A stretch of DNA of 29,026 nucleotides from a virus (lineage: Duplodnaviria > Caudoviricetes): IMG/VR virus record IMGVR_UViG_3300032013_000005, positions 1 through 29,026 of that record. One strand, 5' to 3'. The position numbers were made by a program, and so were the translations under genes. How positions within the stretch are numbered: position 1 is the first letter of the stretch; each line of letters opens with the position of its first letter. A model generated the notes under the pieces. The model ran no database searches, was not told the DNA's origin, and worked only from the letters and a program-made list of their open reading frames with translations. This document shows positions 1 to 21,297 of the stretch, piece after piece.

Positions 1-1428
1 CAAGCCTTGCGTGTACTGTGTACCAGCGCCCTGCAGTCCACCAGCAAGCTGTTGACCAGCACCAGCGGAGGTTTGTCCGTAGAGCTGCTGTGCTGCTTGA
101 TTCGCTCCACCATATTGCTGTTCATACGCCTGGACTATGGCGGCGTTCTGCGCCATCGCATTCATGAGATTCGACGAGTATTGCCCACCAATCTGTTGTT
201 CACCACTGAGGTATTGTGAGCCAAGACCACCCTGCAAACCTTGATACTGCCCAGCGAGATTCGCAAGATTTGTCACGACTGGCATACCATACTCAGCGGT
301 CGCTCGTGCAATAGCAGCATTGACCGCTCCTCCACCTTCAAGACCTTGAAGAGCCATCTGCTGATTAATCTGTGGTCGTGCTATTTGATTGATATAGTTC
401 GATGTTTGATCGAGACCAAGCTTGGTGATATCGGTTGAGAGCTGACCATAGCGAGCAGCATTATCCGTTTGCTGGCGTGTCAGCGCATCAGCATTCATAC
501 GCTGCTGTACGCCTAATGTATCCCGAGCAGCCGCTTGCTGTCGTGTCAACACATCCGCAGATGTACCAAGTTGCTGTCGTAAGACATTCTCCGCATTAGC
601 GGTATTCATGTTGAGCACATTGCCTGCTTGATCGAGCTGTCGCCCATAGCCTTCATTGACCAGACCAAGCTGACGCTGAAACGCTTCTTCACCACCAGCA
701 CGTTGTTCAGCAAGTGTGGCTCTGTTCAAACCGAGTTGCGTGTTGTAGGCATTATCAATCGCGCCTAACTGTGTACCATATGCACCACTGGTTAAGCCTA
801 GTTGCGTGTTCAGTGCATTGCCTATGGCACCAAGTTGTGTATTGTATGCACCAGCATTCAAGCCAAGTTGCTGTCCTAACACATCTTGCGCACTTGCAAG
901 CTGCTGCCCCAATACATTCCCGGCTACGCCGTATTGTTGACCAGCAACAGCACCAGCGTCACCTAACTGAGTGCTTCGCACATTGCCCAAGAGATTCTGC
1001 CCACCAGTAAGATATTGATTTGCATTGGCTTGCTGAAGCCCAAGGGTGCTGTCAAGACGATTGATATAGTTATTCAAGTTCAGATTTGATAAGTCTAAAC
1101 CTTGACCATAGGCTGCTTGCTGAATCTGTGCCGCATTATTCGCATTGCCAAGCAATGAGTTGGTGCCAAGACTTGCATAATCAAGGGTGTTGTAGGGGAC
1201 ATTATTGGCATAGCCAGTCATGCCCATATTGTATAAATCGTTGACGTATGGACTTGGTTGATACGCAGCGTTTGGTCCAGCAAACTGAAAGCCACCCCCA
1301 CCAGCACCGAGGACGTTACGGCTATACTGCAAGCGGAGATTGTTGAGTGCTTGCGTAGTTGGATCGACTTTCGTCGTCTGTGCTTGCGTTCCACCACCGC
1401 CAGTGATACTTGTAACAAGATCACCCAT
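1..1428 (-). CDS. Putative internal virion / DNA ejection (pilot) protein, 3'-truncated by the window edge (>=476 aa); missing from the ORF track
   Basis: Translated by hand: MGDLVTSITGGGGTQAQTTKVDPTTQALNNLRLQ..., with no stop down to base 1. It is Q/G/A/N/L-rich and has 11-aa repeats (YNTQLGAIGNA/LNTQLGLTSGA/YGTQLGAIDNA). The ATG overlaps the upstream stop. Its position after a GNAT-like gene is typical of podovirus ejection proteins. Confidence 0.8.
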   Translation of the reverse strand, partial: MGDLVTSITGGGGTQAQTTKVDPTTQALNNLRLQYSRNVLGAGGGGFQFAGPNAAYQPSPYVNDLYNMGMTGYANNVPYNTLDYASLGTNSLLGNANNAAQIQQAAYGQGLDLSNLNLNNYINRLDSTLGLQQANANQYLTGGQNLLGNVRSTQLGDAGAVAGQQYGVAGNVLGQQLASAQDVLGQQLGLNAGAYNTQLGAIGNALNTQLGLTSGAYGTQLGAIDNAYNTQLGLNRATLAEQRAGGEEAFQRQLGLVNEGYGRQLDQAGNVLNMNTANAENVLRQQLGTSADVLTRQQAAARDTLGVQQRMNADALTRQQTDNAARYGQLSTDITKLGLDQTSNYINQIARPQINQQMALQGLEGGGAVNAAIARATAEYGMPVVTNLANLAGQYQGLQGGLGSQYLSGEQQIGGQYSSNLMNAMAQNAAIVQAYEQQYGGANQAAQQLYGQTSAGAGQQLAGGLQGAGTQYTQGL

Positions 1429-1891
1429 CGGCTTCGCCCTCTGCTAAAGCTTTCTCTAAAGCATCATAGTCAATCATGATTGTTCTCACTGCCTTAAAGC
1501 CATAGCGCTTCTCATATGCTTTGACATTCTTCACGGTCGTAAAGGTCATGAAGGCTGCGCCAATCTGCTGCTTCAGCTTCCGACCATACTCAACCAATTC
1601 ATCAAAGCGTTGGAGGTCAGCTTTATCTGCCTGATATTGATGGCAACTGAGCACTACGACGCCAGCGAGATTCTGAATCTCCAGCACGGCATGCGCAACC
1701 ACTTCGTATTGCTGATTCAACTCGACTAAGATTTGAATGCTTCCATCATTGCTATAGAATCTATTGAGCCAGAACTCCACAATTGGTCCTGCTGGTGCTT
1801 CAGGTGTGACATCAGCAGCAAATGCTGTCAGTCTATTAAACAATACTCCGTGTAGACTTTTCCCAAGATGATCATTGGCTAAGACAATCAT
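1421..1891 (-). CDS. Putative GNAT-fold virion assembly protein (positional analogue of T7 gp13 / P22 gp14), ~156 aa
   Basis: Start moved to MIVLANDH (GGAAGG upstream). The C-terminal 'VKAYEKRYGFKAVRTIM' resembles the GNAT Y-x-x-x-GF motif. It lies just before the ejection-type gene. Confidence 0.5.
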   Translation of the reverse strand: MIVLANDHLGKSLHGVLFNRLTAFAADVTPEAPAGPIVEFWLNRFYSNDGSIQILVELNQQYEVVAHAVLEIQNLAGVVVLSCHQYQADKADLQRFDELVEYGRKLKQQIGAAFMTFTTVKNVKAYEKRYGFKAVRTIMIDYDALEKALAEGEADG

Positions 1892-2240: not shown

Positions 2241-2243
2241 ATG

Positions 2244-2435: not shown

Positions 2436-2470
2436 ACGATACCTCAGCAGCTCACGAGCAGCTCACGCTG

Positions 2471-3001
2471 CTAAAAAGGCAACTGCATAGCATGGCCACT
2501 ATTGCCAAGCTGACCAAGGAAACCACTCATATCAAAGAATTGATCCGTTGATGCAAGCTTCGCTACCGACTGACCTTCAGGTGTACTCACAATGACGTAA
2601 CTCTTAAAGGTGCTGTTGAACAAGTTCGCATCAGCACGTTGCGCAAGTTGATCCTGGTGTTGGAGATCGCCAGCGATCTCAGCAGGGACAATTACGATAC
2701 CAGGACCATAGCTGACGGATTCCTGACCATCTATACGGATCAACTTCCCCTCCGGGCTATACACAGCGTTCCCGCCTGATGTCATCGTTTGCTTGGTATG
2801 GAGCGCAATGCGCACCATGCTCTTACCAACACGCTGTGCGGCTGAAGCCGCTTTCTCTGGCATACCATATGGACGCTCAAACAGTGCAGACTGCGGTACA
2901 GCAGGCTCTTCAGGCTTCGCTATACCGCTGATCTCAACCTGTAAGCCGTGTTGTTCAAACACGGCGTAGGCTTCCTCAAGGGATATCTTTTTCCTAGGCA
3001 T
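2471..3001 (-). CDS. Hypothetical protein directly downstream of the MCP, 176 aa
   Basis: Co-oriented ORF with AGAAAG RBS; no recognisable motif. Confidence 0.8.
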   Translation of the reverse strand: MPRKKISLEEAYAVFEQHGLQVEISGIAKPEEPAVPQSALFERPYGMPEKAASAAQRVGKSMVRIALHTKQTMTSGGNAVYSPEGKLIRIDGQESVSYGPGIVIVPAEIAGDLQHQDQLAQRADANLFNSTFKSYVIVSTPEGQSVAKLASTDQFFDMSGFLGQLGNSGHAMQLPF

Positions 3002-3027
3002 AGCGCTTCGCGCTTTCTATGACAGTA

Positions 3028-4320
3028 CTAAGCTGCGAGCGGAGGAGCCAGTGCTGATCCTGTCTCAAAGCGCTCAATAAACGCATTGTCCAGAATGAAA
3101 CTCTTCCGCATAAACTTCGCACCAACCTTACGGCGCTGTGCAATCGGGTCGGAGTCTGTTGGTCCTTTCGGCGTGATGAAGGTTTGCAGTGCCATACCGT
3201 TCAGTGTACACGTGCCGAACGCTCCCTTACCGCAGACAAAGCCCGGATACACGTTGATACCAAGTGCTGGTGACGCTGGTCCAACCGCTTCCGTCCCGAC
3301 AGGCTGCACACTGATCGTGGTATTCGCACTCGCCGCAGTCCGTGATGCAACGAGGTATGTTGTCGTTCCACCGATTTGCGACATGTACCAATCATACGTG
3401 TAGCCAGTACTACTTGGCGAACGCAGCACAACGGTCCCTGTAGCGCCTACAGCAATAGATGCTGATTGAACTGAAATACGCCGTTCATAGTCTGTTGAGA
3501 TTTCACGAGCAACGACTTTGAACTGATAGTTCCCAGCAGCGAGACTTCCGCCACTACCAGCAGTGATCTGCCCTTTTGTTGCAGTAATAGCTGATGCATC
3601 TGGTGCAGCCACACCAACATAGAACGGCATGAAGTTACCAGTGACCCAATCGACACCCATCCATGGACCAATATAGCCATACTCTAGCTTGGCGATGCGA
3701 CTAAACGCTGAGGCATTCTGGAAGGTCGTATCTGAGCCGAGGACTGCGGCTTTATGTGGTGGTTGCATCACACCCATATAGTAGCCATCCGGCATATACT
3801 TGATGGCCCCACGCATTTCAAGCTTCGCATTGATGGTGATGATCATGGCGGTGTTCATCACATCAGTGTTGGCAAGGGTAGCACGAGACGTTACTGCACC
3901 AGGATAGGTCACATTGGTTGCCGCCATAAGCACGTTCGCATCTTCACGCTCCATGGTTTCTTTCATGGCTAAGCTTACTCGCTCAATGCCAATGCTGAAA
4001 ATGGGATGCTTGGTGGTCAGCTCAAGTACGTCTGTAAAAGCTGCGACAATACCCCATTGCTCCACCACTGTGTCCACGTTAGTCAACGTGAGTGCATTGG
4101 TGAAGGGGGTGACACCTTCAACGAGCTGTGCATTAGGCAGTGCAAGGCGTTCGACGCGAACAACGCGTAACGTCTTCCCCATCTTCTGCTCAAGCGTGAA
4201 TTGATCCGCAAGCTTTTGCAGTACCAGTATCCGCTGGAGAAGATCAATCATCTTTGCGTGAATATACACATTCGGTGCATCAACAGCCGCAACAGCGAAA
4301 GTTGTGTATGCATCAGCCAT
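3028..4320 (-). CDS. Major capsid protein, N4-gp56-like family, with an inserted Ig/FN3-like domain
   Basis: Family motifs 'LVEGVTP', 'VEQWG...FTDV', 'GYIGPWMGVDWV' and 'TDSDPIAQRRKVGAK'. It follows the scaffold gene and is 430 aa. Confidence 0.92.
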   Translation of the reverse strand: MADAYTTFAVAAVDAPNVYIHAKMIDLLQRILVLQKLADQFTLEQKMGKTLRVVRVERLALPNAQLVEGVTPFTNALTLTNVDTVVEQWGIVAAFTDVLELTTKHPIFSIGIERVSLAMKETMEREDANVLMAATNVTYPGAVTSRATLANTDVMNTAMIITINAKLEMRGAIKYMPDGYYMGVMQPPHKAAVLGSDTTFQNASAFSRIAKLEYGYIGPWMGVDWVTGNFMPFYVGVAAPDASAITATKGQITAGSGGSLAAGNYQFKVVAREISTDYERRISVQSASIAVGATGTVVLRSPSSTGYTYDWYMSQIGGTTTYLVASRTAASANTTISVQPVGTEAVGPASPALGINVYPGFVCGKGAFGTCTLNGMALQTFITPKGPTDSDPIAQRRKVGAKFMRKSFILDNAFIERFETGSALAPPLAA

Positions 4321-4340
4321 CTTTTACTAGCCTTTCGTTA

Positions 4341-4447
4341 GATTGACGGCTTCGCCGTATCAATCTTCACCGATTAGATTGAGCAGTATGGTGTGTGCAT
4401 ACTGCCCACATTGTACACACGTTTAGTAGACAGGCGGCTCAAGCCGC
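4341..4447 (-). promoter_or_regulatory. Structured leader between scaffold and MCP genes (three hairpins)
   Basis: GATTG-ACGGC-TTC-GCCGT-AT-CAATC (4341-4365), GCAGTATG-N7-CATACTGC (4383-4405), GCGGCTCAAGCCGC (4434-4447). Confidence 0.6.
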
Positions 4448-4461
4448 AAGATCAAGCTGTA

Positions 4462-5031
4462 TCAGAACGTGATGCCTTCTAAGGCTTTCTCCATCTCCTC
4501 TAGCGGCAAGTTCTCAAAGTTCCCCCACTTACTATCATTCTTCGCTTTATTCATCATAGCCGCACCAAAGTCTGTACTCATCTCAGCACGTTCAACTTGC
4601 GCTTTCTTCCGACTGTTCTGCTTCTCCACGAACTTCTCTGGATCAGCACGGAATTCACGACCGAGTATGGCATCATAGAGATCTTTGCGAGGGATACCAC
4701 GGCCCTGTTGGATTAACTCACCAAACAGCCGTTCAATGGACTCACTGTGTTCCAGTGCATCAGGATTATCTCGGTAGAATCGGACCTCATCTTGGACAGC
4801 ACTGGTGTTCGTAATCGCTTGATTGAGTGCTGGTCCCACAACCGGTCCAATGGTTTCCGCAATCAAACGATGCTGTTGTTGCTGCTGCTGATCTATCTGC
4901 TGCGGAGCAGGTTGCTGCTGTGGCGTGAATTCTTTCATGTAGCTCTGGACTTGATCACGAATGAATGAGGTCACTTTCTCAAAGTCAGCAGCTTCATTGC
5001 TGGCTTCGCCAGTATTCGGTTCTTCAGCCAT
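4462..5031 (-). CDS. Capsid scaffolding protein
   Basis: Acidic, helical, Q-rich 189-aa protein between portal and MCP. It ends in the typical scaffold helix 'FENLPLEEMEKAL'. Confidence 0.8.
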   Translation of the reverse strand: MAEEPNTGEASNEAADFEKVTSFIRDQVQSYMKEFTPQQQPAPQQIDQQQQQQHRLIAETIGPVVGPALNQAITNTSAVQDEVRFYRDNPDALEHSESIERLFGELIQQGRGIPRKDLYDAILGREFRADPEKFVEKQNSRKKAQVERAEMSTDFGAAMMNKAKNDSKWGNFENLPLEEMEKALEGITF

Positions 5032-5034
5032 GAT

Positions 5035-6927: not shown

Positions 6928-6944
6928 GGAGCTGCATAACCCAC

Positions 6945-7054: not shown

Positions 7055-7175
7055 AAGTACTTGACAATCGCTCCACATCCCGTGCCTTCGGCGAGCCGTC
7101 CGCTGAGCCATAGGAATGGCGCAGCGGACGCTCACCAAATGCTACGGGATGTCTCGCTATGATTGTCAAGTACTT
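7055..7175 (-). promoter_or_regulatory. Long fold-back element E1 (ssoA/Frpo-like single-strand promoter or primer origin)
   Basis: Perfect 15-bp terminal IR AAGTACTTGACAATC, with further stems ACATCCCG, CGTCCGCTG and GCCAT. Carries TTGACA-N19-TAGCAT on the minus strand and is homologous to 11175-11308. Confidence 0.7.
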
Positions 7176-7519: not shown

Positions 7520-9133
7520 TTACTCCATTGCAAGGCGTACTAACTCATCATCTGGGAGTTCCATCCACCCATAGGGCTTTTGTTGCTGTTGAAACACCAA
7601 CGCTGCATGCTGCTCTTTGGCCTGCTGTAAGCGCAGCATCTTCGCATCTTCATACGGCACACCCCACTTGATATAGTTCTCAGCGGTGTAGCGCCAACTG
7701 CACGCAATATCGGCAAAGTACATGTCTTCAGTAGGCTTTTTGACTTGACTCTTTTCAGGATAGTGATAACCGCCTTCTAATGCACCAATGAGAATAGGGC
7801 ACTTCTCACTGATTAAGATCATCTCCATGCCGCACTGACATGCTGCTTTCGGCTTGAGCAGTCCTCGCATGTATTGCAGTGATGGCTCTAACTCTAAGAA
7901 ACGCCACTTGAAGGGGAGATGGTATTCATGCATGAGAATCTTCATATCACTGCGACCATCACGACTGGAGGAGCTGTTGCGCCATCCGGCTCTATCACCA
8001 CAATTGAGGACAAGCTTTGCCTCTTTGTAGAGCGCATCCATATGGGGTTTGTGGTGGAGCTTGTACAAATCGTGTACGGTTAAGTTGAAGGCTTCGCCGA
8101 CTTCAGATAAGGTGAGCAGATGATTACTGTTGAACTTGCACTTGTAGATATGGTGATAGGTAATGCCTGGATGTCTGAAGCCGAAGTCCCAACCGCATAT
8201 CAGCGGGAGGAGTGGATTAAACTTGAGGCTTGCCACATGCTTGCGATGTTCAAACTGCGGGAACACTGGTATGCCCTTGTATGCAGCAATAGACTCGCCA
8301 AACACCACACGACGAATGGTTCCATCGCTCCTATTCATCTGTCGTTGTGCACCAATGAGTGACTTGGCGTAGCCACCACCAGTAAATGGGTTGTCGAGTG
8401 TTTCACCCTTCAAAAACTCGACGGTATCTTGCCCAATCGTGCGGAGTCCAGGTGTACTGCCGAAGAGCTTATGGAGAAAGTGACCGTATGGTGGCGGATT
8501 CGATGAGAGCATACCGTGTAATGCGCCATGTGGTCGTGTTGTCTCGTCATATGTACGCGGATCAAACCGTACATGTGGTAAGCGTAGACGAGAGAGTAAG
8601 CCAGCCGTAACATTCGTGCCGACAAAGAATTCCTCCACGCACTCCAACGCATCATCCACCCAGAAGAAACCATGATCAGCACCTAAGCCTTGTCTCCAGT
8701 TCTTTCCGTGTATAGCATGTAGCTCTGAGCCGTTACTGAAGATGATTTCGGTGAAGTTGCCCTTTTCTTTCACGGCGTAAGCAGGTGGTGAGATGAGTTC
8801 ACGCTCTATCAGCCGTTGAATGCATTCCATCACTTTCCGCCAGCTTGTATCGAACAGCTCACCAAAGTTATGCCGAACCACCACACCACGGTTCTTCGGA
8901 ATGCTTAAGCTGAGATAGACACATTTCGCAGCAAAGCCTTCTGACTTGCCTCCACCAACACCGCCCTGCATGAAGAGATACATCGCTGTCGAGTTGAAGA
9001 TGTTGTGCTGTTGCGGCAAGATGTGTTGATGTGGTTGCTGTTTCTGCACACCGAAGAACTTCTCGCACTGGTCCTTGGGAAGCATGCAATCAGGTAAGAA
9101 GTTGTGCAGTGCTGGTACAGGATAGCTACGCAT
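7520..9133 (-). CDS. terL: Terminase large subunit
   Basis: Q motif 'LPQQ', Walker A 'GGVGGGKS', Walker B 'FFWVDD', coupling motif 'SSNP', 'TLDNPF', and RNase H-like nuclease motif 'GWDFGFRHP'. Confidence 0.95.
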   Translation of the reverse strand: MRSYPVPALHNFLPDCMLPKDQCEKFFGVQKQQPHQHILPQQHNIFNSTAMYLFMQGGVGGGKSEGFAAKCVYLSLSIPKNRGVVVRHNFGELFDTSWRKVMECIQRLIERELISPPAYAVKEKGNFTEIIFSNGSELHAIHGKNWRQGLGADHGFFWVDDALECVEEFFVGTNVTAGLLSRLRLPHVRFDPRTYDETTRPHGALHGMLSSNPPPYGHFLHKLFGSTPGLRTIGQDTVEFLKGETLDNPFTGGGYAKSLIGAQRQMNRSDGTIRRVVFGESIAAYKGIPVFPQFEHRKHVASLKFNPLLPLICGWDFGFRHPGITYHHIYKCKFNSNHLLTLSEVGEAFNLTVHDLYKLHHKPHMDALYKEAKLVLNCGDRAGWRNSSSSRDGRSDMKILMHEYHLPFKWRFLELEPSLQYMRGLLKPKAACQCGMEMILISEKCPILIGALEGGYHYPEKSQVKKPTEDMYFADIACSWRYTAENYIKWGVPYEDAKMLRLQQAKEQHAALVFQQQQKPYGWMELPDDELVRLAME

Positions 9134-9422: not shown

Positions 9423-9581
9423 TTAGAATCTCCCCATAAGCAACCATACCAGCAGCGCAACAAGCAGGATAGCAATGATGCTTGATGGTGCATAGCCGTA
9501 CTGATGAAAGCCCCAGTTGCCTGAGACTTGTGGAAGACCGAAGATGAGCAGGATGATCAACACGATGAGAATAAGCGTCAT
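9423..9581 (-). CDS. Small two-TM membrane protein, DUF3309-like (not in the ORF track)
   Basis: MTLILIVLIILLIFGLPQVSGNWGFHQYGYAPSSIIAILLVALLVWLLMGRF*. The LP...GY-x-PS...LLMGR pattern matches DUF3309. TGATG coupling with the upstream ORF. Confidence 0.8.
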   Translation of the reverse strand: MTLILIVLIILLIFGLPQVSGNWGFHQYGYAPSSIIAILLVALLVWLLMGRF

Positions 9582-9877
9582 CAATAATCCCTCACCGTGG
9601 TGAATTTCCCAGCGGCACTATCCACCCGTTGCAGTCGCGTAATCTTAAAGTATCGATTCATGAACTGGGCTGGATCACGCACGCTTTTCATCACCAGGAC
9701 ATACCGCCCATCTTCCACATCGAAATCAGGATGATCGAGATGGATTTCTGTGGTACTTGCGTCCACATTGCGTGTCATCGTGACCACACCCTGATCTGTG
9801 AAATCAACAATCTTTTGTTGCATCTCTGGTGCTGCTGCTTCCAGGATACTCCTCGCTACCACTAAGACGCCTCGCAT
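9581..9877 (-). CDS. Hypothetical protein, 98 aa
   Basis: Strong AGGAG RBS. Confidence 0.75.
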   Translation of the reverse strand: MRGVLVVARSILEAAAPEMQQKIVDFTDQGVVTMTRNVDASTTEIHLDHPDFDVEDGRYVLVMKSVRDPAQFMNRYFKITRLQRVDSAAGKFTTVRDY

Positions 9878-9974
9878 GATTTTCTCCTCTTGTCTTTCAG
9901 CGCAATGATTGATAGAATGAGTACTCCAGACATGCGTGACTCACTCCAGTGTTCCGTGTGCTGTGGTGCAGCCG

Positions 9975-10011
9975 GTCTCTGCGTTGGGCATGATCTCCCC
10001 CACGCAGAGAC
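9975..10011. other. Intergenic stem-loop
   Basis: GTCTCTGCGT (9975-9984) pairs with ACGCAGAGAC (10002-10011), plus an inner GGG/CCC. No U-tract follows. Confidence 0.6.
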
Positions 10012-10019
10012 TTGCAGCA

Positions 10020-10355
10020 TCACCGACTGAACTTCTCGGTCGTTTCCATAATCCTACTCAGCAGATTTGCTCGCCAGTTCTCAACGCGATGCACTCGCTT
10101 CGCTTTGCCTATGCCAATGATACTGCCATCAGACTGACGCTTCACGACCGCTAAGCGGATCGCATCAGCACCAACTGTTCGTACTTGTTCACCAACGAGA
10201 CTTGTATACACTCGTAAGCATATGCCGTGCTTGATGATCTTCCCATACACCAGTTCTCGCGATTGCGCCGTGATCGCATTGATGCGTGTGAAGCCAATAG
10301 CGGTAAGAAAGTTGTGCATATCTTCGGTCTTAATAGGCTTGAACTTCGCCGCCAT
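10020..10355 (-). CDS. Hypothetical basic phage protein, ~111 aa
   Basis: Start moved to MAAKFKPIK (AAGGAG RBS). Contains the motif 'LRVYTSL...R-x-VG-x-DAIR...RVHRVENWRANL'. Confidence 0.75.
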   Translation of the reverse strand: MAAKFKPIKTEDMHNFLTAIGFTRINAITAQSRELVYGKIIKHGICLRVYTSLVGEQVRTVGADAIRLAVVKRQSDGSIIGIGKAKRVHRVENWRANLLSRIMETTEKFSR

Positions 10356-10804: not shown

Positions 10805-10864
10805 GGTATACTCTGTTCCTCTGTATGGGGTGATGCCTGTGCAGTGACGGTCTCCACTCCGGTC

Positions 10865-11040
10865 TGACGATGCTCACCTGGTAGGACGCGACAGCCTACC
10901 AGGTCGTCACCTTCTCAAGTATACCACACTAGCCTATGAAAATCCACCCATAGCGGTATTTCAGCCCTCTTTTGCGGCTCTTTTTCCACCTATAGCCACT
11001 CTTTTTTGAGCTAAGCCTCTGAATCATAACGAGTTATGGC
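10865..11040 (-). promoter_or_regulatory. Promoter, leader hairpin and iteron-like repeats upstream of the RepL-like gene
   Basis: Extended -10 TGgTATACT (10926-10918); hairpin ACCTGGTAGG/CCTACCAGGT (10876-10904); TCCACC(C/TA)..TAGC-like repeats near 10943 and 10985 with T-tracts; IHF-like motif at 11012-11040. Confidence 0.5.
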
Positions 11041-11174
11041 ATTGCCCTTCTAAGATATAACCTGCTCCAGTGATGTGAGTAGCCTGGCGGTGCCTGCTCC
11101 GCAGCCTACGGCTGCTACGCTCGGATTTTTTCTGCACCTATGCATAGATAGTGCACACTGCTCACTTGTGCCGT

Positions 11175-11308
11175 TGAGCCAGGGTTGACATGCTAGGACA
11201 CGGCACGCTAGCATTTGGCGACAACGCCGTCGCGAGTCAGCACCTGACTCTCGACGGCGGACTCGCCGAAGGCAGCGTGCTGGGGCCGCATGTCAATGCT
11301 GGCGCTCA
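11175..11308 (+). promoter_or_regulatory. Long fold-back element E2 (ssoA/Frpo-like), homologue of E1
   Basis: Stems TTGACATGC (11185-11193)/GCATGTCAA (11288-11296), GCACGCT/AGCGTGC, CGCCGTCG/CGACGGCG and GAGTCAG/CTGACTC. Carries TTGACA-N18-TAGCAT. Confidence 0.7.
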
Positions 11309-11413
11309 GCAGTCAAATCAGCTTGCTCACCTGCGCGTAGCGCCCAGAGTGGCTCAGTGCTCATTTGTGCAGGTGCACAGAAGTGTCTCTTGACTCCATG
11401 TGCGGAGCACCTT

Positions 11414-11824
11414 ATGCTGAACCCCATGCGCACTTACCATGCACATCGGACTCGATTACAACAGTTCATCCAATCATCATTTACTCCGGTGATCCTGGTA
11501 AAGCTGCTCAACTGTCGAGTACGACCACTGCGTTGTGGAAGCGTGTGTGGTAATGCGCTAAAGTATGCAGTTCATAGCTTGCTGACTGATGAGCAGAAAT
11601 GCGCGTTTACGCGCAAGATCACTCGACATGTGCTGAGGATATGCTTCCCTGATGACTTTGTATCATTGCTGTTGATTGCAGCGTTTGAGCCATCTGGGAA
11701 ACCAAGTGAACAGAACCGAGCCTTGTATTACTGGTTACTCCACAACATCTATAGTGATAGCATAACCAGTATGATCGCTGACTGGCTTTTAGCAAAGAGG
11801 TGCGAAGCACTTGGACCCAAGTAA
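11414..11824 (+). CDS. Hypothetical protein, ~136 aa
   Basis: GGAG upstream of ATG 11414; first ORF of the rightward operon; start uncertain. Confidence 0.55.
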   Translation: MLNPMRTYHAHRTRLQQFIQSSFTPVILVKLLNCRVRPLRCGSVCGNALKYAVHSLLTDEQKCAFTRKITRHVLRICFPDDFVSLLLIAAFEPSGKPSEQNRALYYWLLHNIYSDSITSMIADWLLAKRCEALGPK

Positions 11825-12065
11825 GATCGTCTACTGCTGTACCAGATGCCAGCAGCTTCCCTGCCGATGCATTCGTGATAGTAGTCGCGTCACCTTTCAG
11901 ATTCTTCAGTGCAGTGCACCACACTGCAACTACACCACCTATACGGCTACAGACCTCCAGAATCATCATCTCGCTGCGCATGAGCGCTCGTACATCTTCA
12001 TTGCGGATCAATCTGTCGTGGAACATACCAATGGAGGTGCGAAGCACGATGGAACACATGTTTAG
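11811..12065 (+). CDS. C2H2 zinc-finger protein, 84 aa
   Basis: GAGG RBS plus TTG start. C-x4-C-x12-H-x4-H (CSAPHCNYTTYTATDLQNHHLAAH) and an N-terminal CCxxC-x4-CxC. Confidence 0.65.
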   Translation: MDPSKIVYCCTRCQQLPCRCIRDSSRVTFQILQCSAPHCNYTTYTATDLQNHHLAAHERSYIFIADQSVVEHTNGGAKHDGTHV

Positions 12066-12447
12066 ATCAGCTATTGCTGACGATCCTGATGCTATTCCAC
12101 TTGACGTACCGAATCAAGATTCTGGCGAAGCCGATGCAGCAAGTGTTGATATGGTCTTAGTGTTGTCGAGTGAACTGGTCTGCCAGATAGCCGAGAAGTA
12201 CTTCAACAGCACTATGCTGAAGAAGAAAGTGAAAGTGCTCGATCTCCAAGCAACCGCAGCAGGCTTAGTGCAGTTTAGTGTTGCTTTTACTCTTGATCCA
12301 GTAGGCGTCACTCCAACACGACTTGAGCTTATTCCTTCAAGCATTCCTCCTGCGGCTTCAGCCGCTCAGCAGCCACGAACAGCAAATGGCAAGTTCAGGA
12401 AGTCTTCAACAGCGGCTTTAGCCGCAAAGGTGAAAGATCATGAGTGA
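12049..12447 (+). CDS. Hypothetical protein, ~132 aa
   Basis: Start moved to ATG 12049 (GGAGG RBS); the ORF-track extension overlaps the C2H2 gene. Confidence 0.7.
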   Translation: MEHMFRSAIADDPDAIPLDVPNQDSGEADAASVDMVLVLSSELVCQIAEKYFNSTMLKKKVKVLDLQATAAGLVQFSVAFTLDPVGVTPTRLELIPSSIPPAASAAQQPRTANGKFRKSSTAALAAKVKDHE

Positions 12448-12874
12448 AACTCCGCGAAGTGGTAGTGGTAGTGGTGATACTGCGCGTAGCGCTGGTGATG
12501 AGATCACCACGAGTGAAGGTCCACGGAGAACAGCACCACGGACCAGTAGCACAGGTGTTGGTGGCGAAGTGACACAGAGCGAACGTGATGTTGCTGAGCA
12601 TGAACGCCAACGGACACAGCTACGTCAGAGTGGCGAAGCCAGTACAACAACATCAGAGACACCAGCCGTAGCGTCTGCACAGCAGGAACTCTTCAAAGCT
12701 GACTTCACGTCAATGCGTGAGCACATTAACGCATTGCGCAATCATGCCATGACTCTGCCCAACTCTGATGCACTCGCTGAGGTGCTGTTAGCGGTTGAAA
12801 GTGCCGAACTAGGCATTAGCCGTGCAGAGCGTTTAGTGCTCAATCTCCCTGATGAGAGCGCGGAGCGCCCATAA
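12440..12874 (+). CDS. Hypothetical protein with disordered N-half and helical C-half, 144 aa
   Basis: AAGGTG RBS; overlaps the previous stop; S/T/G/E-rich N-terminus. Confidence 0.75.
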   Translation: MSETPRSGSGSGDTARSAGDEITTSEGPRRTAPRTSSTGVGGEVTQSERDVAEHERQRTQLRQSGEASTTTSETPAVASAQQELFKADFTSMREHINALRNHAMTLPNSDALAEVLLAVESAELGISRAERLVLNLPDESAERP

Positions 12875-12883
12875 GGATACGCT

Positions 12884-15481
12884 GTGCGAAAACATGAGAG
12901 ACGTGTGAAGCGCAGCCTTCCCTTTGCTGTTGTGAGCATGTTTATCCTCGCTATCGTACTGATTGCTGGGTTGAATGTGCTTATGTCGGTAACGCGCTAT
13001 ACGCCTGATCCATCTGAAGAGAAGCGTGAAGCGCAGGTCGATTTGAGTGCGCGAAGCGCCAGTGCGCAATCACAGCAGACCATTCAGCGCATCATGAATG
13101 ATGTGTGGGATAAGACCGGTAAGCGCATCATGACGACACCATGGGCTGGTGCGCAAGGCACAAGCCAAAGCGAAACGTTCATCTGGAATGATGTGTGGGA
13201 TCAAGCGAATCATCTCATCAGAACATCTGGCGGAGCTGGTCCGAGTGGTCCGAGTGGTCCAGTCAACTTTACTGACCTTATCGGTACAGCCAGTGATGCA
13301 CAGATTCCCAACTTGAACACGCTCAGTACTGGTCTTACCCCATCTCGATGCGTGCAGACTGATGCAGTTGGTCATCTGAGCGTAGCTTCTGATGCGTGTG
13401 GCACTGGTGGTGGAGGTGGTGGAGATAGCACACCTGAGAACGTGGTCAGTGCACAAATTGTGTGCGATGGCACGACTGATGTTGGGCCAGCGCTGCAAGC
13501 CCTCTTTGATAGTGTTCCTGTTGGGACACGCATTGCACTCCCTCCTGGTATTTGTTCGCTGAATCAAGCGCTGGTTATTAATCAGTCCGTAAGCCTGGAA
13601 GGCGCTGGTATGAATCAGACGACCTTACGGCAAACGGTCTCCAATGCTCGCGTACTCACTGTCCAGACGTATAGTGTCACTATAGAAGGACTAACCTTCA
13701 GCCATAGTGGTACACCCACTGCTGGTGGTGATGGTCTTGTGGTCCTTGGTCCAGGTGGTGTTCCGATCTTTGCTGTGACGATCATGAATACCATGGCAAC
13801 GCATAATTGGCGAGGATACGCCATAGGCCCTGTATCCTATGCACAGATGGCGCATGTCTGGGCTATGAATAATGATAGCCATGGGTTTGAATTCCTCTAC
13901 ACAGCGGCTGATGGTGGTGGTTCGCAGCAGTGGCATGTGCTCAATGCGCTCTCGCAACAGAACCTTGGTGCTGGCTATTATGGCAACAACACGCTTGCTG
14001 CGAATGGTATTGGTCCCTGGCTTACAGAATCAATCAGCTTTGCCAATAATGCTGGTGGCTTTGTCTTCGTCGGCTCATCCGGGCATATGATTAGTGCCGT
14101 TCGCTTGAATGCTATTGATGCGAGTACGGATAATGTGCATGGTGTCTATCTCGACACCTTTGGTGGTTCACACCAGCTTGTCATGCCCAGTGTTGAGAAT
14201 GTCGGGCTGAATGCTGGCATTCCTATAGGCTCTGCAGGAACGCTCTCTGTGGCGAGCAATACTGGTCATGGTATTGAGGTCACGGCTAACAACAACTACG
14301 GTGTCATGATCAATGGTGGGACCATCTGGAATAATAGCTGGAGTGGTATTGTTCTGAACGCACCATCCAGTCAGCTTATTGGTGGTCAGACAGTCGGCAA
14401 TGGCAAAGCACTTATTGCTGACCCGACAAAGCGTGCAGCTCTCTATATTGGTGGAAACAACACGTTAGTTGATGGTCATACCTTCCAGTTCATTGGCGAT
14501 GGCTCGACACAAGATTACATCACGCTTGCTGGTGGTGTGACCGGCACGGTTATCGGTGTCAATAGCTATGCCGCAGGTCTCGCAGCAGAAACGAGCACTC
14601 TTGCAGGTTTACCTGCTGGCTCAACCGATTTCGTTGGCACTGGTGGACCTGGCCAGGTGTTGAAGCAGCTCAGTGTTGGTGGTCCGGTCACAGTAGGCCC
14701 ACTCAGCTCTGGTGAGGTTGGTTTAGGCAATGTAGACAATACCTCAGACACCACGAAGAATAGCAATCCAGCGGTCCTCACCAACAAGCAGATTGTTGCA
14801 CGAATTCCAACGTGTACTGTGACTGGATCAGGTCCATTCATCATCACGCCTAATGCCGATACAACTGATGTCTGCGAATCGTATGCGATTACTGGAGCAC
14901 TCCAGATAGCCAACCCTACAGCAACAGGTTCCAACCCACGTCCACATCAACGGCTTGAATTCGCCCTGAAGGCGGCTACGCCACAAACAGTGACGTTTAC
15001 AGGTTCCCTCTATGACAACAGTTGTGGTCAACCACTGCCGACAAACTTAACAGGTGATGGCTCCACAACCGATCACTTCCTCTTCGCCTTCAACCCCAAC
15101 ACCAATAAGTTTTGTGCACTGGCAAGTTCACGAGCACCAGCAAAACGGCTCAACACCTTCACGAGTGCGGTTGCCAGCCCCACACTCACCTGTGTCAGTC
15201 CAACAACAGACCGCTGTCAACTCACCGCTACTGGCGCAACCGGAACGATAACCATAGCGAATCCAACGGGATTGCCAAATGATGGTGATATGATGATGAT
15301 TGCACTGCTGTGCAGCGCCGTGCATGCTGTAGCGTGGGATACGCAGTTTGTTGGCAGTCCCAATATTCCCTTACCAACCACAGCAGCGTGCCCAGCAGAT
15401 ACCGCAAAGTGGACCGTGTTTGGTGTGCAGTACAGTGCAAGTTTGGCTCCGCCAAAGTGGCAATTGTTAGGAGCGAATTAG
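12884..15481 (+). CDS. Membrane-anchored tail-fibre/tailspike-like protein with a pectin-lyase-like beta-helix, 865 aa
   Basis: Basic N-terminus plus TM helix (aa ~12-36); beta-helix cap 'DGTTDVGPALQALFD...IALPPG'; fibre motif 'VGLGNVDNTSD'; two tandem C-terminal domains ('TTD..IANPT..LPT..F.(F/Y)..K(F/W)') typical of phage fibre ends; 12 Cys. Confidence 0.8.
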   Translation: MRKHERRVKRSLPFAVVSMFILAIVLIAGLNVLMSVTRYTPDPSEEKREAQVDLSARSASAQSQQTIQRIMNDVWDKTGKRIMTTPWAGAQGTSQSETFIWNDVWDQANHLIRTSGGAGPSGPSGPVNFTDLIGTASDAQIPNLNTLSTGLTPSRCVQTDAVGHLSVASDACGTGGGGGGDSTPENVVSAQIVCDGTTDVGPALQALFDSVPVGTRIALPPGICSLNQALVINQSVSLEGAGMNQTTLRQTVSNARVLTVQTYSVTIEGLTFSHSGTPTAGGDGLVVLGPGGVPIFAVTIMNTMATHNWRGYAIGPVSYAQMAHVWAMNNDSHGFEFLYTAADGGGSQQWHVLNALSQQNLGAGYYGNNTLAANGIGPWLTESISFANNAGGFVFVGSSGHMISAVRLNAIDASTDNVHGVYLDTFGGSHQLVMPSVENVGLNAGIPIGSAGTLSVASNTGHGIEVTANNNYGVMINGGTIWNNSWSGIVLNAPSSQLIGGQTVGNGKALIADPTKRAALYIGGNNTLVDGHTFQFIGDGSTQDYITLAGGVTGTVIGVNSYAAGLAAETSTLAGLPAGSTDFVGTGGPGQVLKQLSVGGPVTVGPLSSGEVGLGNVDNTSDTTKNSNPAVLTNKQIVARIPTCTVTGSGPFIITPNADTTDVCESYAITGALQIANPTATGSNPRPHQRLEFALKAATPQTVTFTGSLYDNSCGQPLPTNLTGDGSTTDHFLFAFNPNTNKFCALASSRAPAKRLNTFTSAVASPTLTCVSPTTDRCQLTATGATGTITIANPTGLPNDGDMMMIALLCSAVHAVAWDTQFVGSPNIPLPTTAACPADTAKWTVFGVQYSASLAPPKWQLLGAN

Positions 15482-15482
15482 T

Positions 15483-16016
15483 ATGCTGAAATACTTCCTC
15501 TGTGTCATGATGGTTTTACTGTGCGTCAGCACTAGTGCATTTGCTGAGTGCACGTCAACTGAGCTGTTCAATGAGCTTGCGACTGATCCGGCTGTACCAC
15601 CACTTGGCTATGCCGCAGCGTATGGGAAGCCGATCACGACCAACAGTATCGGCAACGATCAAGCTGTCCTCGATATGATTAACCTGATCCGTCAAGGCAC
15701 AGCCTATCAGATTCAACGAGTGCTCATGCCAGCCTATGAGATCGCCGCGTTGATGAATCCTGCAGAGTTCAATGCGCTTACAGGCGGTAAGCAACAACAG
15801 CTTGTGTCCATCTTTGCAGCATTACAAGTTGATGTCTCTTCGCAGAACATGCGCGATATTCTCTTTAATGGACCCACCTCCATCTTTCCGAATCCTGGAG
15901 CTACTCGGACAGCCTTGATTGCTGCGGTGAAACGACAGGGAAGCCGTGCTGAAGTCGTGTGTGGGAGCAATCGCACTATGGCGCAAGTATCCCAAGCCAT
16001 TCGTGGCAGTCAATAA
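15483..16016 (+). CDS. Signal-peptide-bearing phage protein, 177 aa
   Basis: MLKYFLCVMMVLLCVSTSAFA|E signal. The 'ELATDP..LGY..DQAVLD..TRTAL..SRAE' pattern is one I recognise from fibre-associated phage proteins. Confidence 0.75.
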   Translation: MLKYFLCVMMVLLCVSTSAFAECTSTELFNELATDPAVPPLGYAAAYGKPITTNSIGNDQAVLDMINLIRQGTAYQIQRVLMPAYEIAALMNPAEFNALTGGKQQQLVSIFAALQVDVSSQNMRDILFNGPTSIFPNPGATRTALIAAVKRQGSRAEVVCGSNRTMAQVSQAIRGSQ

Positions 16017-16028
16017 GGAGGATCAGCT

Positions 16029-16556
16029 ATGAAACGGCTCACAACACTCTTCCTCCTTGGTGTTGCACTCGCAGTTGCTTTAGCTGCGCCAGCAGCTCAT
16101 GCGCTCACATTGCAAGAAAGCCTCGGCACAGCCACAACATTGCTCAATGCTGAACTGAACAGTATCGGTACGAACGTGTACACTGGCTTGTCGAGTGCCA
16201 CCTTCGATAATAGCCTTGCCGCAGCAGGCAATGGTGTCCTGCGCTGTCGTGTTGAACTCATTATCGTCTACACGACCGCACCAACAGCGAATACTGCATG
16301 GGTAGTGTGGCTGTTGCGTTCTGCTGATGGCACCAACTATGAGCCGACACCAACCTCCGCCATTGCTCCTGGCTCCGCACTGACGCTCAGCTTTCCTGTC
16401 AACAGTGGCGCAACCACGACCCGAGGCATTATCGACATCGACTGCCCAGCAGGTAAGATGAAAGCCGTTGCGAAGAATGATGGGACTGGTCAAAGCTCTA
16501 ATGGTGGTGCAGTGAACTTCTTGAAGATTTGGCCGATCATCATTCAAGGGAACTAA
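16029..16556 (+). CDS. Signal-peptide-bearing beta-sandwich protein, 175 aa
   Basis: AAGGAGG RBS; MKRLTTLFLLGVALAVALAAPAAHA| signal; 'ELNS..DNS..APTA..S.DGTNY' pattern. Confidence 0.8.
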   Translation: MKRLTTLFLLGVALAVALAAPAAHALTLQESLGTATTLLNAELNSIGTNVYTGLSSATFDNSLAAAGNGVLRCRVELIIVYTTAPTANTAWVVWLLRSADGTNYEPTPTSAIAPGSALTLSFPVNSGATTTRGIIDIDCPAGKMKAVAKNDGTGQSSNGGAVNFLKIWPIIIQGN

Positions 16557-16560
16557 GTCA

Positions 16561-17376
16561 ATGCTGTTGCTGTTCTTACTCTTTCTCTTATTCCCGACGC
16601 TTGCGTTGGGACAAGCACCGCTCAGTGCGAATCTTCGGCAAGGTCTTGTTGGTCGATGGGTAGTATCGCCACTGACCAAGGGTGGACTGACCTGGTATCC
16701 CCAGGTTGGCCAGGACAAAGGCACACTCGTCAATGGTGTCAACGGCTATCAACCCACATTCCGCCCTGGTGGTGTTGGGGAGATGCGCTTTGATGGCACC
16801 AACGACCAAATTAATACAGGCACAACAGTGCTGTTGGCCAATCTGCCCGCTTTCACCATCTGTCTTTGGTTCCGCTCAGCTAGCACTGCTGCCCAACAGC
16901 TCTACACCGAGAACATCAGTGGATGGCCTGACCTGCATATCGTCATCAACTGGGGAGATCCAACCAAGATCTACTTTAATAACTATGGCAATACAGGACA
17001 GGTTGAATCGAGTGGCGTTCCTGCTTTTGCGCTTGATTCCAATGTCTGGCAACATGTGTGCGGTGTACAACGCAGTAAAAGCAGTGGTGAAATATACTCG
17101 AATGGCAAGCTTATTGGTGTGAGTACTGGCACCGTAGGCACCTCTACGCCATCAGCACGAGCCTTTGGCGCTTCACCTCAAGGCTCAAATCTCTTCAGTG
17201 GTGCTCTTGATGATGTCTGTACCTGGACACGAGCACTGAATGCTGCGGAAATCCAACAAGTGTATATTGAAAGCCAAAACAAGCCATCACAAGCATTTGC
17301 TCTCTACGATGCGCTCTTTCCAACTGTTGTTACCACACGGAGAGGTCTGCTCAACTACTTTACCACGCCAAAATGA
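16561..17376 (+). CDS. LamG/ConA-like lectin domain protein with signal peptide, 271 aa
   Basis: MLLLFLLFLLFPTLALG|Q signal; LamG motifs 'GLVGRW', 'FDGTND', 'FTICLWF', 'WQHVCGV', 'IYSNG' and 'FSGALDDVCTWTRALNAAEIQQ'. Confidence 0.9.
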   Translation: MLLLFLLFLLFPTLALGQAPLSANLRQGLVGRWVVSPLTKGGLTWYPQVGQDKGTLVNGVNGYQPTFRPGGVGEMRFDGTNDQINTGTTVLLANLPAFTICLWFRSASTAAQQLYTENISGWPDLHIVINWGDPTKIYFNNYGNTGQVESSGVPAFALDSNVWQHVCGVQRSKSSGEIYSNGKLIGVSTGTVGTSTPSARAFGASPQGSNLFSGALDDVCTWTRALNAAEIQQVYIESQNKPSQAFALYDALFPTVVTTRRGLLNYFTTPK

Positions 17377-17391
17377 GGTGCGCTCCGCGCT

Positions 17392-20300: not shown

Positions 20301-21297
20301 TATCAGCACTTCGACACAGCCTATCACGAACGGGAGCAACTGGACCAACGCAACCACGATTGGTTCCTACGGAACTGAAACAGCAACACTTGTCCTCGCT
20401 TCATCATCAGATGTCGCCCTGTACTTTAATGGGAGCAATTCCTACATCATATTAGACCGACTCATTATCGACTGTCATAATCAAACCAATAGCAATGGTC
20501 TTGCCACAACAGCACCGACGCATCATATTCGTTTCCAGAATGGTGAAATCAAGACCTGTCATTTTGAACCAATCTACATCGAGAACAGCGATGGCATTGA
20601 GATTCTCAACTCAACTATTCATGGCAGCATTGTCGCTTCCTGCATCAATCTTACTGGTGGTAGTGACGGCACCATTATCAGAGGTAACACCATCTACGGC
20701 TGTGCCGAAGCTGGTATCGAAGCGGCTTCACCGAATACGAACACATCCATTCGAGGTAATGTCATTCATGACGTTGGGTCAGGAGCTACGCTCGCAGGCA
20801 TAGCATTAACAGGCGCTACCACTCCCGAAATCATCAACAATGTCAGCTATGCCAACTATCGTGGTGGTCAACTCTCGACTGGCACCTCCAACGCTAAAGT
20901 CTACAACAACACTTTCAACAACAACAGTCAACAGGGATTGTTTATTGATACTGGCGTCAATGACACATCTGCTACGAACAACATCGTTGCCGATAATGGT
21001 GCTGGTCAAATTGTAAACAGTGGTTCTGGCACCATACAACTGACGAATCTTACTGTTGCACCACCCTTTGACCCGGCTTTCCCGAATAAGTTTCATCTTA
21101 CTGCTGCATCAACCACTGCTATTGATATGGGCACAGCTTTAGCTGCTGATGTTCCAATCGACTACGAAGGTGTGCAACGTCCACAAGGTTCAGGCTTCGA
21201 TATTGGTGCAAGTGAATTTGTTGGCACTGTTATCCCACCGCCACCTGGCGCTATTCAAGGACCATACTGGAGAGGACAAGGCTTTCTATGGCGATAA
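17392..21297 (+). CDS. Exported trimodular beta-helix protein with a central PL1-type pectate lyase, 1301 aa
   Basis: Signal MILSLFLIFFVLLAGPVIA|V. N- and C-terminal beta-helices end in 'ARPQ..FDVGAYE' and 'QRPQGSGFDIGASEF'. The central PL1 has 'AFPSAEGFG..GGRG', 'PGSLR', 'TIAGQTAPG', 'ILDHVS', 'SRNP' and 'DADHDGMPDTWE'. Confidence 0.9.
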   Translation: MILSLFLIFFVLLAGPVIAVERFARPGASSGLPCPEGSPCSLSTCVNATNAGDICTLLDNGSPYTDRIGPGMGLKSGSSWNPGGFVTIRGKPGQRPRFTNYAIDINTNSGAYQFIHFENFIVDGAGIFIGGEAAHDMRVYNIEVKNNIGASGISAYPNPNTGRGCERVEYAFVDVHDNGSDGRDHGVYNCCKDNIIRDSKFYGNAGYGLQIYWTGIIDAINRGDAPPGTDYRCNSGTKIYNNYIYNNDNWGITIDYGDNVQFFNNVVVGSQAGGGMQTIHHVDNLQIYNNTIYGNVGSGIVFGDIGQVTNAKIRNNIFANNSDPVNSAGSSGVSFSNNLCWQNGGFGNTGIGCTHSGDPKFTAPGNSAGSDFSLQDTSAAINIGADLRPTVATDKIGTARPQPSGGMFDVGAYERLGTGGGPGPGPDPCPPNCPVTCPPDCPVTCPPDCPVEPPVVKAFPSAEGFGSTAVGGRGSPSQPGRTIEVTNLLDDNNPGSLRYCVLQTGPRTCVFRTGGTIALNSPLNTTAVNSFLTIAGQTAPGGGIQTKNWFIQFGYGTHDVIVRHLKVRPGTDHNPTDINNQCGGIILYRGEGTVHHIILDHVSIEWSCDDSINLSGLIQDTTIQWSIIGEGMNNGDYCSPTSDQCANSKGLLIGDFVDQTVSVHHNMFLTSESRNPAVAGANPLDFRNNLIYNWYACYAGSSFGYQPGGFTRVNYIGNKTIVGPSSGSLTDCRLGDIDYEAIDMYAIDNSTPWCERDGNCTTASFAQMGFIGPSRLGNPEVNELQARVSTPFTVPPVVTTPVANLESLLVSKAGATVPFRDALDTRLINEMTSRTGTKGRGGEPWPVLAAGTPPADADHDGMPDTWEQQHSLNMNEPGDAAQIAANGYSNLENYLNTLAGDTVNLDPPTGNRVSPGVFYVALNGVDPPTRDCTAALNNIDAPLLSVNAGRSCLTVAGDTLYLRQGSYTTGISTSTQPITNGSNWTNATTIGSYGTETATLVLASSSDVALYFNGSNSYIILDRLIIDCHNQTNSNGLATTAPTHHIRFQNGEIKTCHFEPIYIENSDGIEILNSTIHGSIVASCINLTGGSDGTIIRGNTIYGCAEAGIEAASPNTNTSIRGNVIHDVGSGATLAGIALTGATTPEIINNVSYANYRGGQLSTGTSNAKVYNNTFNNNSQQGLFIDTGVNDTSATNNIVADNGAGQIVNSGSGTIQLTNLTVAPPFDPAFPNKFHLTAASTTAIDMGTALAADVPIDYEGVQRPQGSGFDIGASEFVGTVIPPPPGAIQGPYWRGQGFLWR
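18652..18743 (+). repeat. Tandem repeats encoding a Gly-Pro/Cys-Pro linker
   Basis: (GGTCCT)x3, then the 24-bp unit TGTCCTGTGACATGTCCTCCYGAT x2 plus a partial copy (18688-18743), encoding CPPNCPVTCPPDCPVTCPPDCPV. Confidence 0.9.

Follow-up and report, generated by a model that had tools for sequence, protein, structure and literature searches.

Are very small DNA hairpins that recur across a phage genome kept there as signals, or are they left behind by the way in which its DNA mutates? The question is raised by a stretch of 29,026 nucleotides (the window; positions 1 to 29,026 of IMG/VR virus record IMGVR_UViG_3300032013_000005), whose gene content is that of an uncultured tailed phage with a partial genome. 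An earlier note, made from the sequence alone, had described it as strewn with GC-GDA-GC mini-hairpins, in which a GDA triloop (D being A, G or T) is closed by a short stem. Record G001 overlaps the left end of the window and extends it by 8,690 bases that hold tail/ejection-type genes; window and extension together, 37.7 of the ~44 kb of this genome, were analysed, with ~6 kb outside the analysis. The same virus is present in other records, one of them of 44,247 bases, and the phage-bearing sequencing runs are soil metagenomes and metatranscriptomes. The phage holds about 20 times the chance number of tiny DNA hairpins of fixed size.

Hairpin counts against chance

The 46 GCGNAGC/GCTNCGC heptamers of the window (17 with GAA, 11 with GCA, 10 with GTA and eight with GGA loops) were reproduced, as were the 19 with perfect stems of at least 4 bp (15 of 4 bp, three of 5 bp and one of 6 bp), all starting exactly where the earlier note had placed them. 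Its statements that the hairpins lie on both strands and that the loops of these 19 are only GAA, GGA or GTA were also correct; the wording "never GCA" is true of the window and fails in the 8.7-kb extension, which holds one 4-bp GCA stem. Two CC-GTA-GG stems (5 and 6 bp) in the window were missing from the earlier list. Markov models of order 1, 3 and 5 gave means of 0.49, 0.77 and 1.91 long stems (maximum 6), and the observed 19 were reached in none of the 150 simulations for each model. The excess of the bare heptamer is smaller under the richer nulls (46 versus 16.6, 20.8 and 34.3).

The earlier note had named outcomes that would refute it, similar counts after shuffles preserving amino acids and codon usage or equally frequent control hairpins, and the analysis did not give them: coding C-GDA-G stems number 12 versus 2.6 after synonymous-codon shuffling (0/300 shuffles), and no excess exists for hairpins with a different loop (98 versus ~122). 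Over the 37.7 kb there are 22 long-stem GDA hairpins versus 1.23 expected. Sense copies within genes number nine versus 0.54 (0/500 synonymous shuffles), including two start-linked ones that overlap an upstream gene. A codon or composition artefact was rejected because the excess persists over both the Markov and the codon-shuffle nulls.

Stem and loop rules

The 22 hairpins use seven arm types, which are always paired and whose outer pairs covary, and the flanks have no consensus except for the purines of ribosome sites. Because the arms vary yet pair and the flanks lack a consensus, intrastrand pairing is indicated rather than a duplex operator. The covarying pairs, the presence of copies in all three codon phases and an excess on the antisense strand sustain the proposal that the signal is DNA structure and not a protein-binding word or a codon effect. 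Stem length is restricted as well. Copies with 2-bp stems occur at chance (6 versus 6.9 in the sense orientation), 3-bp stems are mildly in excess (8 versus 3.4), and extension beyond 4 bp, found in 5/22, occurs at the chance rate; the target is an 11-mer with a 4-bp stem.

Mini-hairpins are reported to form only with GNA loops and GC or CC inner pairs (PMC13037366), and the inner pairs of the window's long stems, GC in 19 and CC in two, agree with these rules. According to the same source, r(GCGAAAGC) melts at 39 °C versus 76.5 °C for the DNA version, the GCA loop (71 °C) is about as stable as GTA (70 °C), and GAAA is as stable as GAA (PMC13037366). In the 37.7 kb, a GCA loop is present in 1/23 long stems versus an expected share of 0.37 (P 3e-4), and a GAAA loop was found once versus 0.13 expected. 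Since these equally stable loops are little used, stability of the single strand is insufficient to explain the set. Forms with a decayed loop are few (third loop base changed, 0 versus 3.6; middle base changed to C, 1 versus 0.9), and the number of RNA-type cUUCGg stems is 0.

Four GC-ACA-GC hairpins with 4-bp stems (12675-12685, 15305-15315, 15695-15705 and 20697-20707; 4 versus 0.95 expected in 37.7 kb, P 0.016 uncorrected) are possibly weaker members of the same fold class.

A second hairpin family

An unbiased scan of the 37.7 kb found a second family, GC-TTBA-GC (B being C, G or T), with eight stems of at least 4 bp versus 0.62 expected. Stems of exactly 5 bp, which make a hairpin 14 nt long, number seven versus 0.16, and sense copies within genes four versus 0.13 (0/300 codon shuffles). 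Five copies have the common arm GCGGC. The loci of capsid relatives, described below, have seven GC-TTBA-GC hairpins versus 11.5 expected. TTTA is a described type II DNA loop (PMC5661647).

Both loop types are also known as tips of repetitive extragenic palindromic (REP) elements, TTCA/TTTA in Haemophilus and GAA/GGA/GCA in the enterobacterial REPs (PMC2817692). The hairpins could then be footprints of mobile REP/RAYT-like elements, or cassettes from the host, and the shared GCGGC arm is what such an origin might leave. We consider this improbable. A GT(A/G)G head lies near 4/30 stems versus 3.9 by chance, and the flanks do not agree with one another. Whereas REPs are extragenic and near-identical over 20-40 nt, the hairpins of this phage are 11 nt long, use seven arm types, lack a long palindrome body and are mostly found in coding sequence (11/22) or start spacers. 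No Y1 transposase was detected in the open reading frames scanned. In-frame insertion in the manner of mobile GC clusters was not seen either: the alignable coding sites show no indel, the terminase sites being gap-free and the register of an eleven-residue repeat being kept.

Start codons, strand and gene blocks

The hairpins are strongly enriched before genes. Their core lies within the last 16 nt upstream of 9/44 start codons in the 37.7 kb, versus 0.48 expected; these nine include a presumed GTG start located at the contig end and a case with a 3-bp stem. The distance from core to start is 2-3 nt in eight cases and 5 nt in one. All three long stems of the extension are start-linked. With eight copies in 704 nt of start windows, three in 3,409 nt of other non-coding DNA and 11 in 33,603 nt of coding sequence, start windows are ~13 times denser than other non-coding DNA. 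This tie to starts, the second family and the restriction to one lineage were all absent from the earlier note.

In 17/22 hairpins the GDA loop falls on the sense strand (P 0.017), and the long stems beyond 14 kb are all three antisense. The window holds an N4-gp56-family major capsid gene (3028-4320), the terminase large subunit gene (7520-9133), a + strand block at 11.4-22.2 kb with beta-helix and lectin-like genes, and a - strand block from 22.2 kb with HNH, UvrD-like helicase, AAA_25 and SWIM genes. Judged by this gene content, the last block is probably early and the others late (virion). Neither family enters the early block, where 0/30 hairpins fall between 22.2 and 29 kb (P 0.0025). 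The two families together have 10 copies in 11.15-13.5 kb (4.3 per kb) and 0.5-0.9 copies per kb in the other virion-gene blocks.

In four runs the RNA contigs start at 11416-11528, and in 4/5 runs they end at 12848-12866, at the hairpin 12858-12868, which one run bridges. These positions are at most a weak hint, because neither the strand nor the ends of an RNA can be read from contigs; the lack of coverage of 10700-11406 by RNA contigs of four runs carries no evidential weight.

Hairpins placed before start codons might act in the RNA, by partly hiding the ribosome site of low-copy virion genes or by binding a translational regulator. Nine starts have the motif, the spacers of the capsid, portal and terminase genes are without it, and the predicted RNA folding of the eight testable start regions has a mean of -6.4 kcal/mol versus -4.3 for the other 35. 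Nevertheless, such tuning is unlikely: the loop rule is that of DNA, with an RNA version that melts far lower, antisense copies follow this rule on the opposite strand, 14/22 hairpins are not at starts, and RNA-type cUUCGg stems are absent.

A role in replication appears equally unlikely. In that case the hairpins would load a primase or helicase, or would be landmarks free of single-stranded DNA-binding protein (SSB) on displaced strands. The G4 origin and ssiA of RSF1010 have mini-hairpins, which SSB binds poorly (PMC13037366), and the loop and the GC/CC stem rule are the same. A RepL-like gene (10367-10804, -) is next to the region of highest density and to the strand switch near 11.15 kb, and 20/22 strands agree with a fork model in which a single switch, placed freely, falls near 14 kb. 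However, the G4 and ssiA hairpins are single origin elements, whereas those of the phage are dispersed, under-use GCA and GAAA loops and are missing from the whole 6.8-kb block that holds the replication genes. Spacing is very uneven (0 to 8 hairpins per 2-kb bin), the RepL homologue occurs in relative L021, which has no hairpin, the skew at fourfold sites is a mosaic that marks no clean origin, and the tie to start codons is left unexplained. The earlier suggestions of priming sites or nuclease protection gained no positive evidence from the analysed span.

Relatives and the origin of the copies

Among the capsid relatives, 122 loci (1.04 Mb, partly redundant) contain 24 long stems versus 35.8 expected, and three near-complete relatives have 0, 1 and 0. 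With the relatives at or below chance, a family-wide promoter was rejected. The comparison covers relatives with DNA, which leaves out the nearest capsid relatives, P0002 and P0003. No cultured phage has more than 35% identity to this one, and a host search gave a single genome-contig match at 42% and no useful names. Records L051, L001 and L049 differ from the window by nine, one and one bases, all outside the hairpins; the contigs of the examined runs, which drop rare variants, show no variant at any hairpin.

Two sister relatives, L019 and L075, lie apart from this phage in the capsid tree. They have GCGNAGC right after the Shine-Dalgarno sequence, at five starts by script and eight by eye in L019 and at three starts in L075, with stems of 2-4 bp and GCA permitted. 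The arrangement (L019 5623-14110; L075 2096-3945) is Shine-Dalgarno, GCGNAGC, often TAC, then ATG, and in L019 the motif stands once as a tandem pair (10163 and 10179). Both relatives resemble the start-associated sequences of phages, such as those of cluster K mycobacteriophages, in which a subset of genes has a short repeated element in the spacer that separates ribosome site from start codon. In the phage studied here, by contrast, what is conserved is not a fixed word but pairing and a DNA-type loop, and the majority of copies are off starts. Relative L003 has tandem AAGAAGC/AGGAAGC heptamer runs in or between genes (9460-10170 and 14670-14780) instead of mini-hairpins.

A further 143 viral loci (1.51 Mb; a second scan took 120 of about 160) were chosen for having one start-type hairpin. 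They contain 108 further hairpins versus 81 expected, and none of them nears the hairpin density of this phage. Only L222 and L261 reached P < 1e-3; three of the five copies in L222 are one repeat, and L261 is 617 bp long, its 36-kb record having a single GCGCGDAGCGC.

Where orthologues align, the coding hairpins arose by substitution. Compared with L076, the terminase hairpin at 8365 (residue 255) encodes the same residues, with synonymous changes only and no indel, and at residue 347, within a 3-bp hairpin, Glu replaces the Asp of 12/12 aligned relatives. The hairpin at 971 preserves the spacing of its repeat without indel and places Arg where 13/15 units have Leu, Tyr or Phe. Several coding sites have no usable orthologue, and the substitutions were seen at those that can be aligned.

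Substitutions of this kind could also come from structure-biased mutation. Hairpins would fold in transient single-stranded DNA, template switching or hairpin-guided repair would perfect them, and they would accumulate without function where constraint is weak. Template switching that perfects inverted repeats is supported in proteobacteria (PMC5941160), and it is described at short hairpins in yeast (PMC3874155). In the phage the excess extends to both orientations, the copies lean to protein under low constraint and are restricted to one lineage, 3-bp stems and variants of the first loop base (9 versus 4.1) are in excess, and two unrelated compact DNA loops are enriched together, all of which is consistent with a mutational origin. 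On the other hand, copying ought to lengthen stems, yet they stop at 4 bp and extend further only at chance, which disfavours a copying ratchet. Pairing arms offer no template for the loop; nevertheless, the long-stem copies account for the heptamer excess, and 2-bp stems are at chance. A process acting throughout replication would reach the early block, and neither the density of the start windows nor the scarcity of GCA and GAAA loops is what it would give. Part of the difficulty with stem length and loop would be removed if the mutation were confined to the transcription bubble. The mutational drive that the earlier note listed among its options therefore stands as the main rival, a possible explanation to be kept beside the functional one.

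Comparison with N4 promoters and ops/opsX

The promoters of the phage N4 virion RNA polymerase (vRNAP) have the same GC-GNA-GC heptamer with a paired, covarying outer stem of free sequence, and their extrusion is reported to need the closing pair plus the loop G and A (PMC4496689). The capsid protein of the phage, as mentioned, is of the N4-gp56 family. Dai, in 1998, is said to have excluded a central C from the N4 hairpin loop. Even so, the link to N4 promoters that the earlier note had drawn is very hard to maintain. N4 has three hairpins of 5-7 bp on the template strand at the early end of its genome, whereas this phage has 22 of 4 bp, mostly on the sense strand of virion-gene blocks. A +1C eleven bases from the loop centre, together with a purine at the loop centre, occurs in 3/22 hairpins here and in 3/3 of N4. 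N4 encodes a virion polymerase of 3,500 residues; tblastn found no match to it at E 0.01 in the 37.7 kb, including the extension, where the earlier note had proposed to look, and none in the relatives either. Its 10.5-kb gene would not fit in the remaining 6 kb, and a full-size N4 vRNAP system was rejected.

The ops and opsX elements, which NusG paralogues read (RfaH in E. coli, UpxY in Bacteroides), have the same GCG-N-AGC, variable outer pairs and a length of ~11-12 nt, and are mostly on the non-template strand near starts; the opsX hairpins are of the YGCGNAGCR type and span -11 to +1 (PMC11685472). The 11 nt of the GDA hairpins match this span. Of the hairpins here, 17/22 lie on the non-template strand and 5/22 are antisense. 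Unlike ops/opsX, they are dispersed by the dozen, many are in genes and some antisense, the stem is fixed at 4 bp and a second, TTBA, family exists. They belong to none of the N4 promoters, ops/opsX, REPs or priming signals; in their working, if they are functional at all, ops/opsX may be the nearest.

A possible signal in late transcription

We tentatively prefer to regard the hairpins as dispersed, weakly selected DNA-shape signals of late (virion) operons. The analysis shows two families with a fixed stem length and covarying arms, together with confinement outside the early block, enrichment at starts, an overall sense bias, an origin by substitution and restriction to one lineage. The fixed length, the excess at starts, the absence from the early block, the lean to the sense strand, the restricted choice of loops and the small number of loop-decayed copies argue for a folding signal in an unpaired window of 11-14 nt. 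The sense strand would be unpaired in the transcription bubble, or through extrusion driven by supercoiling, and the hairpin would fold there; a window of 11-14 nt has the size of the 11-nt GDA and 14-nt TTBA hairpins. Folded hairpins may then mark gene starts for RNA polymerase or an elongation factor. By analogy with ops/opsX, what would be late-operon hairpins may fold in vivo, be under selection and affect pausing or ribosome loading. Consensus pauses are reported to be enriched at translation starts (PMC5234074).

Several results weigh against this preference. The antisense coding copies are in excess too (4 versus 0.43; 1/500 shuffles), and in 5/22 hairpins, including a start-linked one, it is the template strand that bears the stable loop. 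When late and early starts alone are compared, the difference is not significant (9/33 versus 0/11, P 0.085). Coding copies number one in 7,093 nt of core genes and 14 in 21,855 nt of others (P 0.087), and this lean to unconstrained protein fits a weak force of either kind, selection or mutation. TTBA loops with any stem are sense in 9/17, without strand bias, and N4 itself has six GC-TTBA-GC stems of at least 4 bp versus 0.94, a count made without codon control and with only one at 5 bp. The variants of the first loop base and the lack of conserved positions, with low counts in the capsid relatives and near-complete genomes, point the same way. In the register of opsE, whose hairpin is at -11 to -1 (PMC11685472), the ops pause consensus (Y at position -1, R at position +1) is present in 3/22 hairpins. 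Neither a NusG-family protein nor another known factor was found in the open reading frames scanned in 37.7 of the ~44 kb.

More speculatively, and with considerable doubt on our part, the lineage may have evolved a two-hairpin code for late starts on the non-template strand. It would have grown from the looser start-linked GCGNAGC of the relatives, and its reader would be a factor for elongation or ribosome loading outside the described families, possibly encoded by one of the small unannotated genes at 11.4-12.9 kb, where hairpin density is highest. The phenomenon is real, strong, structural and unusual, and it may reflect either a function in late operons or mutational bias.

The known in vivo examples of GNA mini-hairpins are a few single sites (N4 promoters, ops/opsX, ssiA). 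Here there are dozens, of fixed size, overriding codons, in one lineage, with the early block and the relatives as controls. A survey of inverted repeats on a large scale required arms of at least 10 bp (PMC13155455), and those described here are too short for it to have detected them. In the literature searched, with most subscription journals outside the search, no description of genome-wide short GNA hairpins in a phage was found. Should they be selected, the hairpins add a new cis-signal, dispersed over the genome, to late phage transcription; should they be mutational, they record naturally which hairpins of this size fold inside living cells and would directly test 4-bp extrusion.

Feature coordinates and further observations

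Table 1. Hairpins of both families and the hairpin-free block in the window.
Position	Strand	Feature	Context
921..931	-	GC-GTA-GC, 4 bp, coding, sense	Gln/Gly-rich gene ending at 1428
971..981	-	GC-GAA-GC, 4 bp, coding, sense	Gln/Gly-rich gene, in eleven-residue repeat
1430..1438	-	GC-GAA-GC, 3 bp	between Shine-Dalgarno-like site and ATG at 1428
2838..2851	-	second family GC-TTCA-GC, 5 bp, coding, sense	
3002..3014	-	GC-GAA-GC, 5 bp	immediately before ATG at 3001
4346..4358	-	GC-GAA-GC, 5 bp	leader of major capsid gene
4434..4447	-	second family GC-TTGA-GC, 5 bp, intergenic, sense	
4900..4910	+	GC-GGA-GC, 4 bp, coding, antisense	gene 4462-5031
5000..5012	-	GC-GAA-GC, 5 bp, coding, sense	gene 4462-5031, poorly conserved N-terminus
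8365..8375	+	GC-GTA-GC, 4 bp, antisense	in terminase large subunit gene
11094..11104	-	GC-GGA-GC, 4 bp, intergenic	overlaps CC-GTA-GG 6-bp hairpin 11101-11115
11333..11343	+	GC-GTA-GC, 4 bp, intergenic	upstream of + strand genes
11400..11410	+	GC-GGA-GC, 4 bp	before ATG at 11414, start of a gene for which relatives have 10 homologues
11800..11810	+	GC-GAA-GC, 4 bp	between GAGG and TTG start 11811, small Cys/His-rich open reading frame
12037..12047	+	GC-GAA-GC, 4 bp	between GGAGG and ATG at 12049
12352..12365	+	second family GC-TTCA-GC, 5 bp, coding, sense	
12412..12425	+	second family GC-TTTA-GC, 5 bp	just upstream of ribosome site, gene 12440
12482..12492	+	GC-GTA-GC, 4 bp, coding, sense	
12631..12641	+	GC-GAA-GC, 4 bp, coding, sense	
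12858..12868	+	GC-GGA-GC, 4 bp	end of gene 12440-12874
13049..13059	+	GC-GAA-GC, 4 bp, coding, sense	
15442..15456	-	GC-GGA-GC, 6 bp, coding, antisense	
17380..17390	-	GC-GGA-GC, 4 bp	before ATG 17392, stable loop on template strand
20783..20793	-	GC-GTA-GC, 4 bp, coding, antisense	beta-helix gene
21134..21145	+	second family GC-TTTA-GC, 4 bp, coding, sense	
22188..29026	-	putative early/replication block, neither hairpin family	internal negative control

Four small unannotated genes at 11414-12874 (+) are covered by RNA contigs in all runs examined there, and two of them have homologues across the family. The product of gene 11414 has a 14-residue insertion and a decayed PGGY motif compared with its 10 homologues; its best Atlas score is 0.81, and a PDB search gave no match below E 0.7. 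The RepL-like gene is predicted to encode a winged-helix protein (Atlas score 0.97), and the three near-complete relatives lack a homologue of it.

An imperfect inverted repeat of ~110 bp was found three times, at 7061-7169 (-) and 11185-11296 (+) of the window and at ~1580-1700 (-) of L131. Its outer arms and an internal mismatch are conserved, and the inner stem covaries. In two of the three copies the 5' arm contains a sigma-70-like pair, TTGACA and TAGCAT, 18-19 nt apart; the L131 copy has a 3' arm whose end falls on an ATG of the downstream open reading frame. The repeat had no match in Rfam, other loci, phages or plasmids, and a pattern search returned this phage plus four unrelated matches that fold differently. 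It may be an RNase III site, a late promoter or a promoter of the single-strand (Frpo-like) kind, and a fourth copy probably lies in the remaining ~6 kb. The two matches that Rfam gave were weak and both in L001 outside the window (isrG, 28.6 bits versus a cut-off of 100; mir-1538, 28.1 bits versus 78).

The 540-bp non-coding gap at 22690-23230, between the HNH and helicase genes, holds 10/18 of the GTCTCA/TGAGAC words of the 37.7 kb, together with G/C tracts, and is a candidate origin. An 87-kb contig from run X4 has pieces of the tail-module genes (window 14296-17086) in the same order and with ~80% identity, which suggests an exchange of modules with a larger phage.

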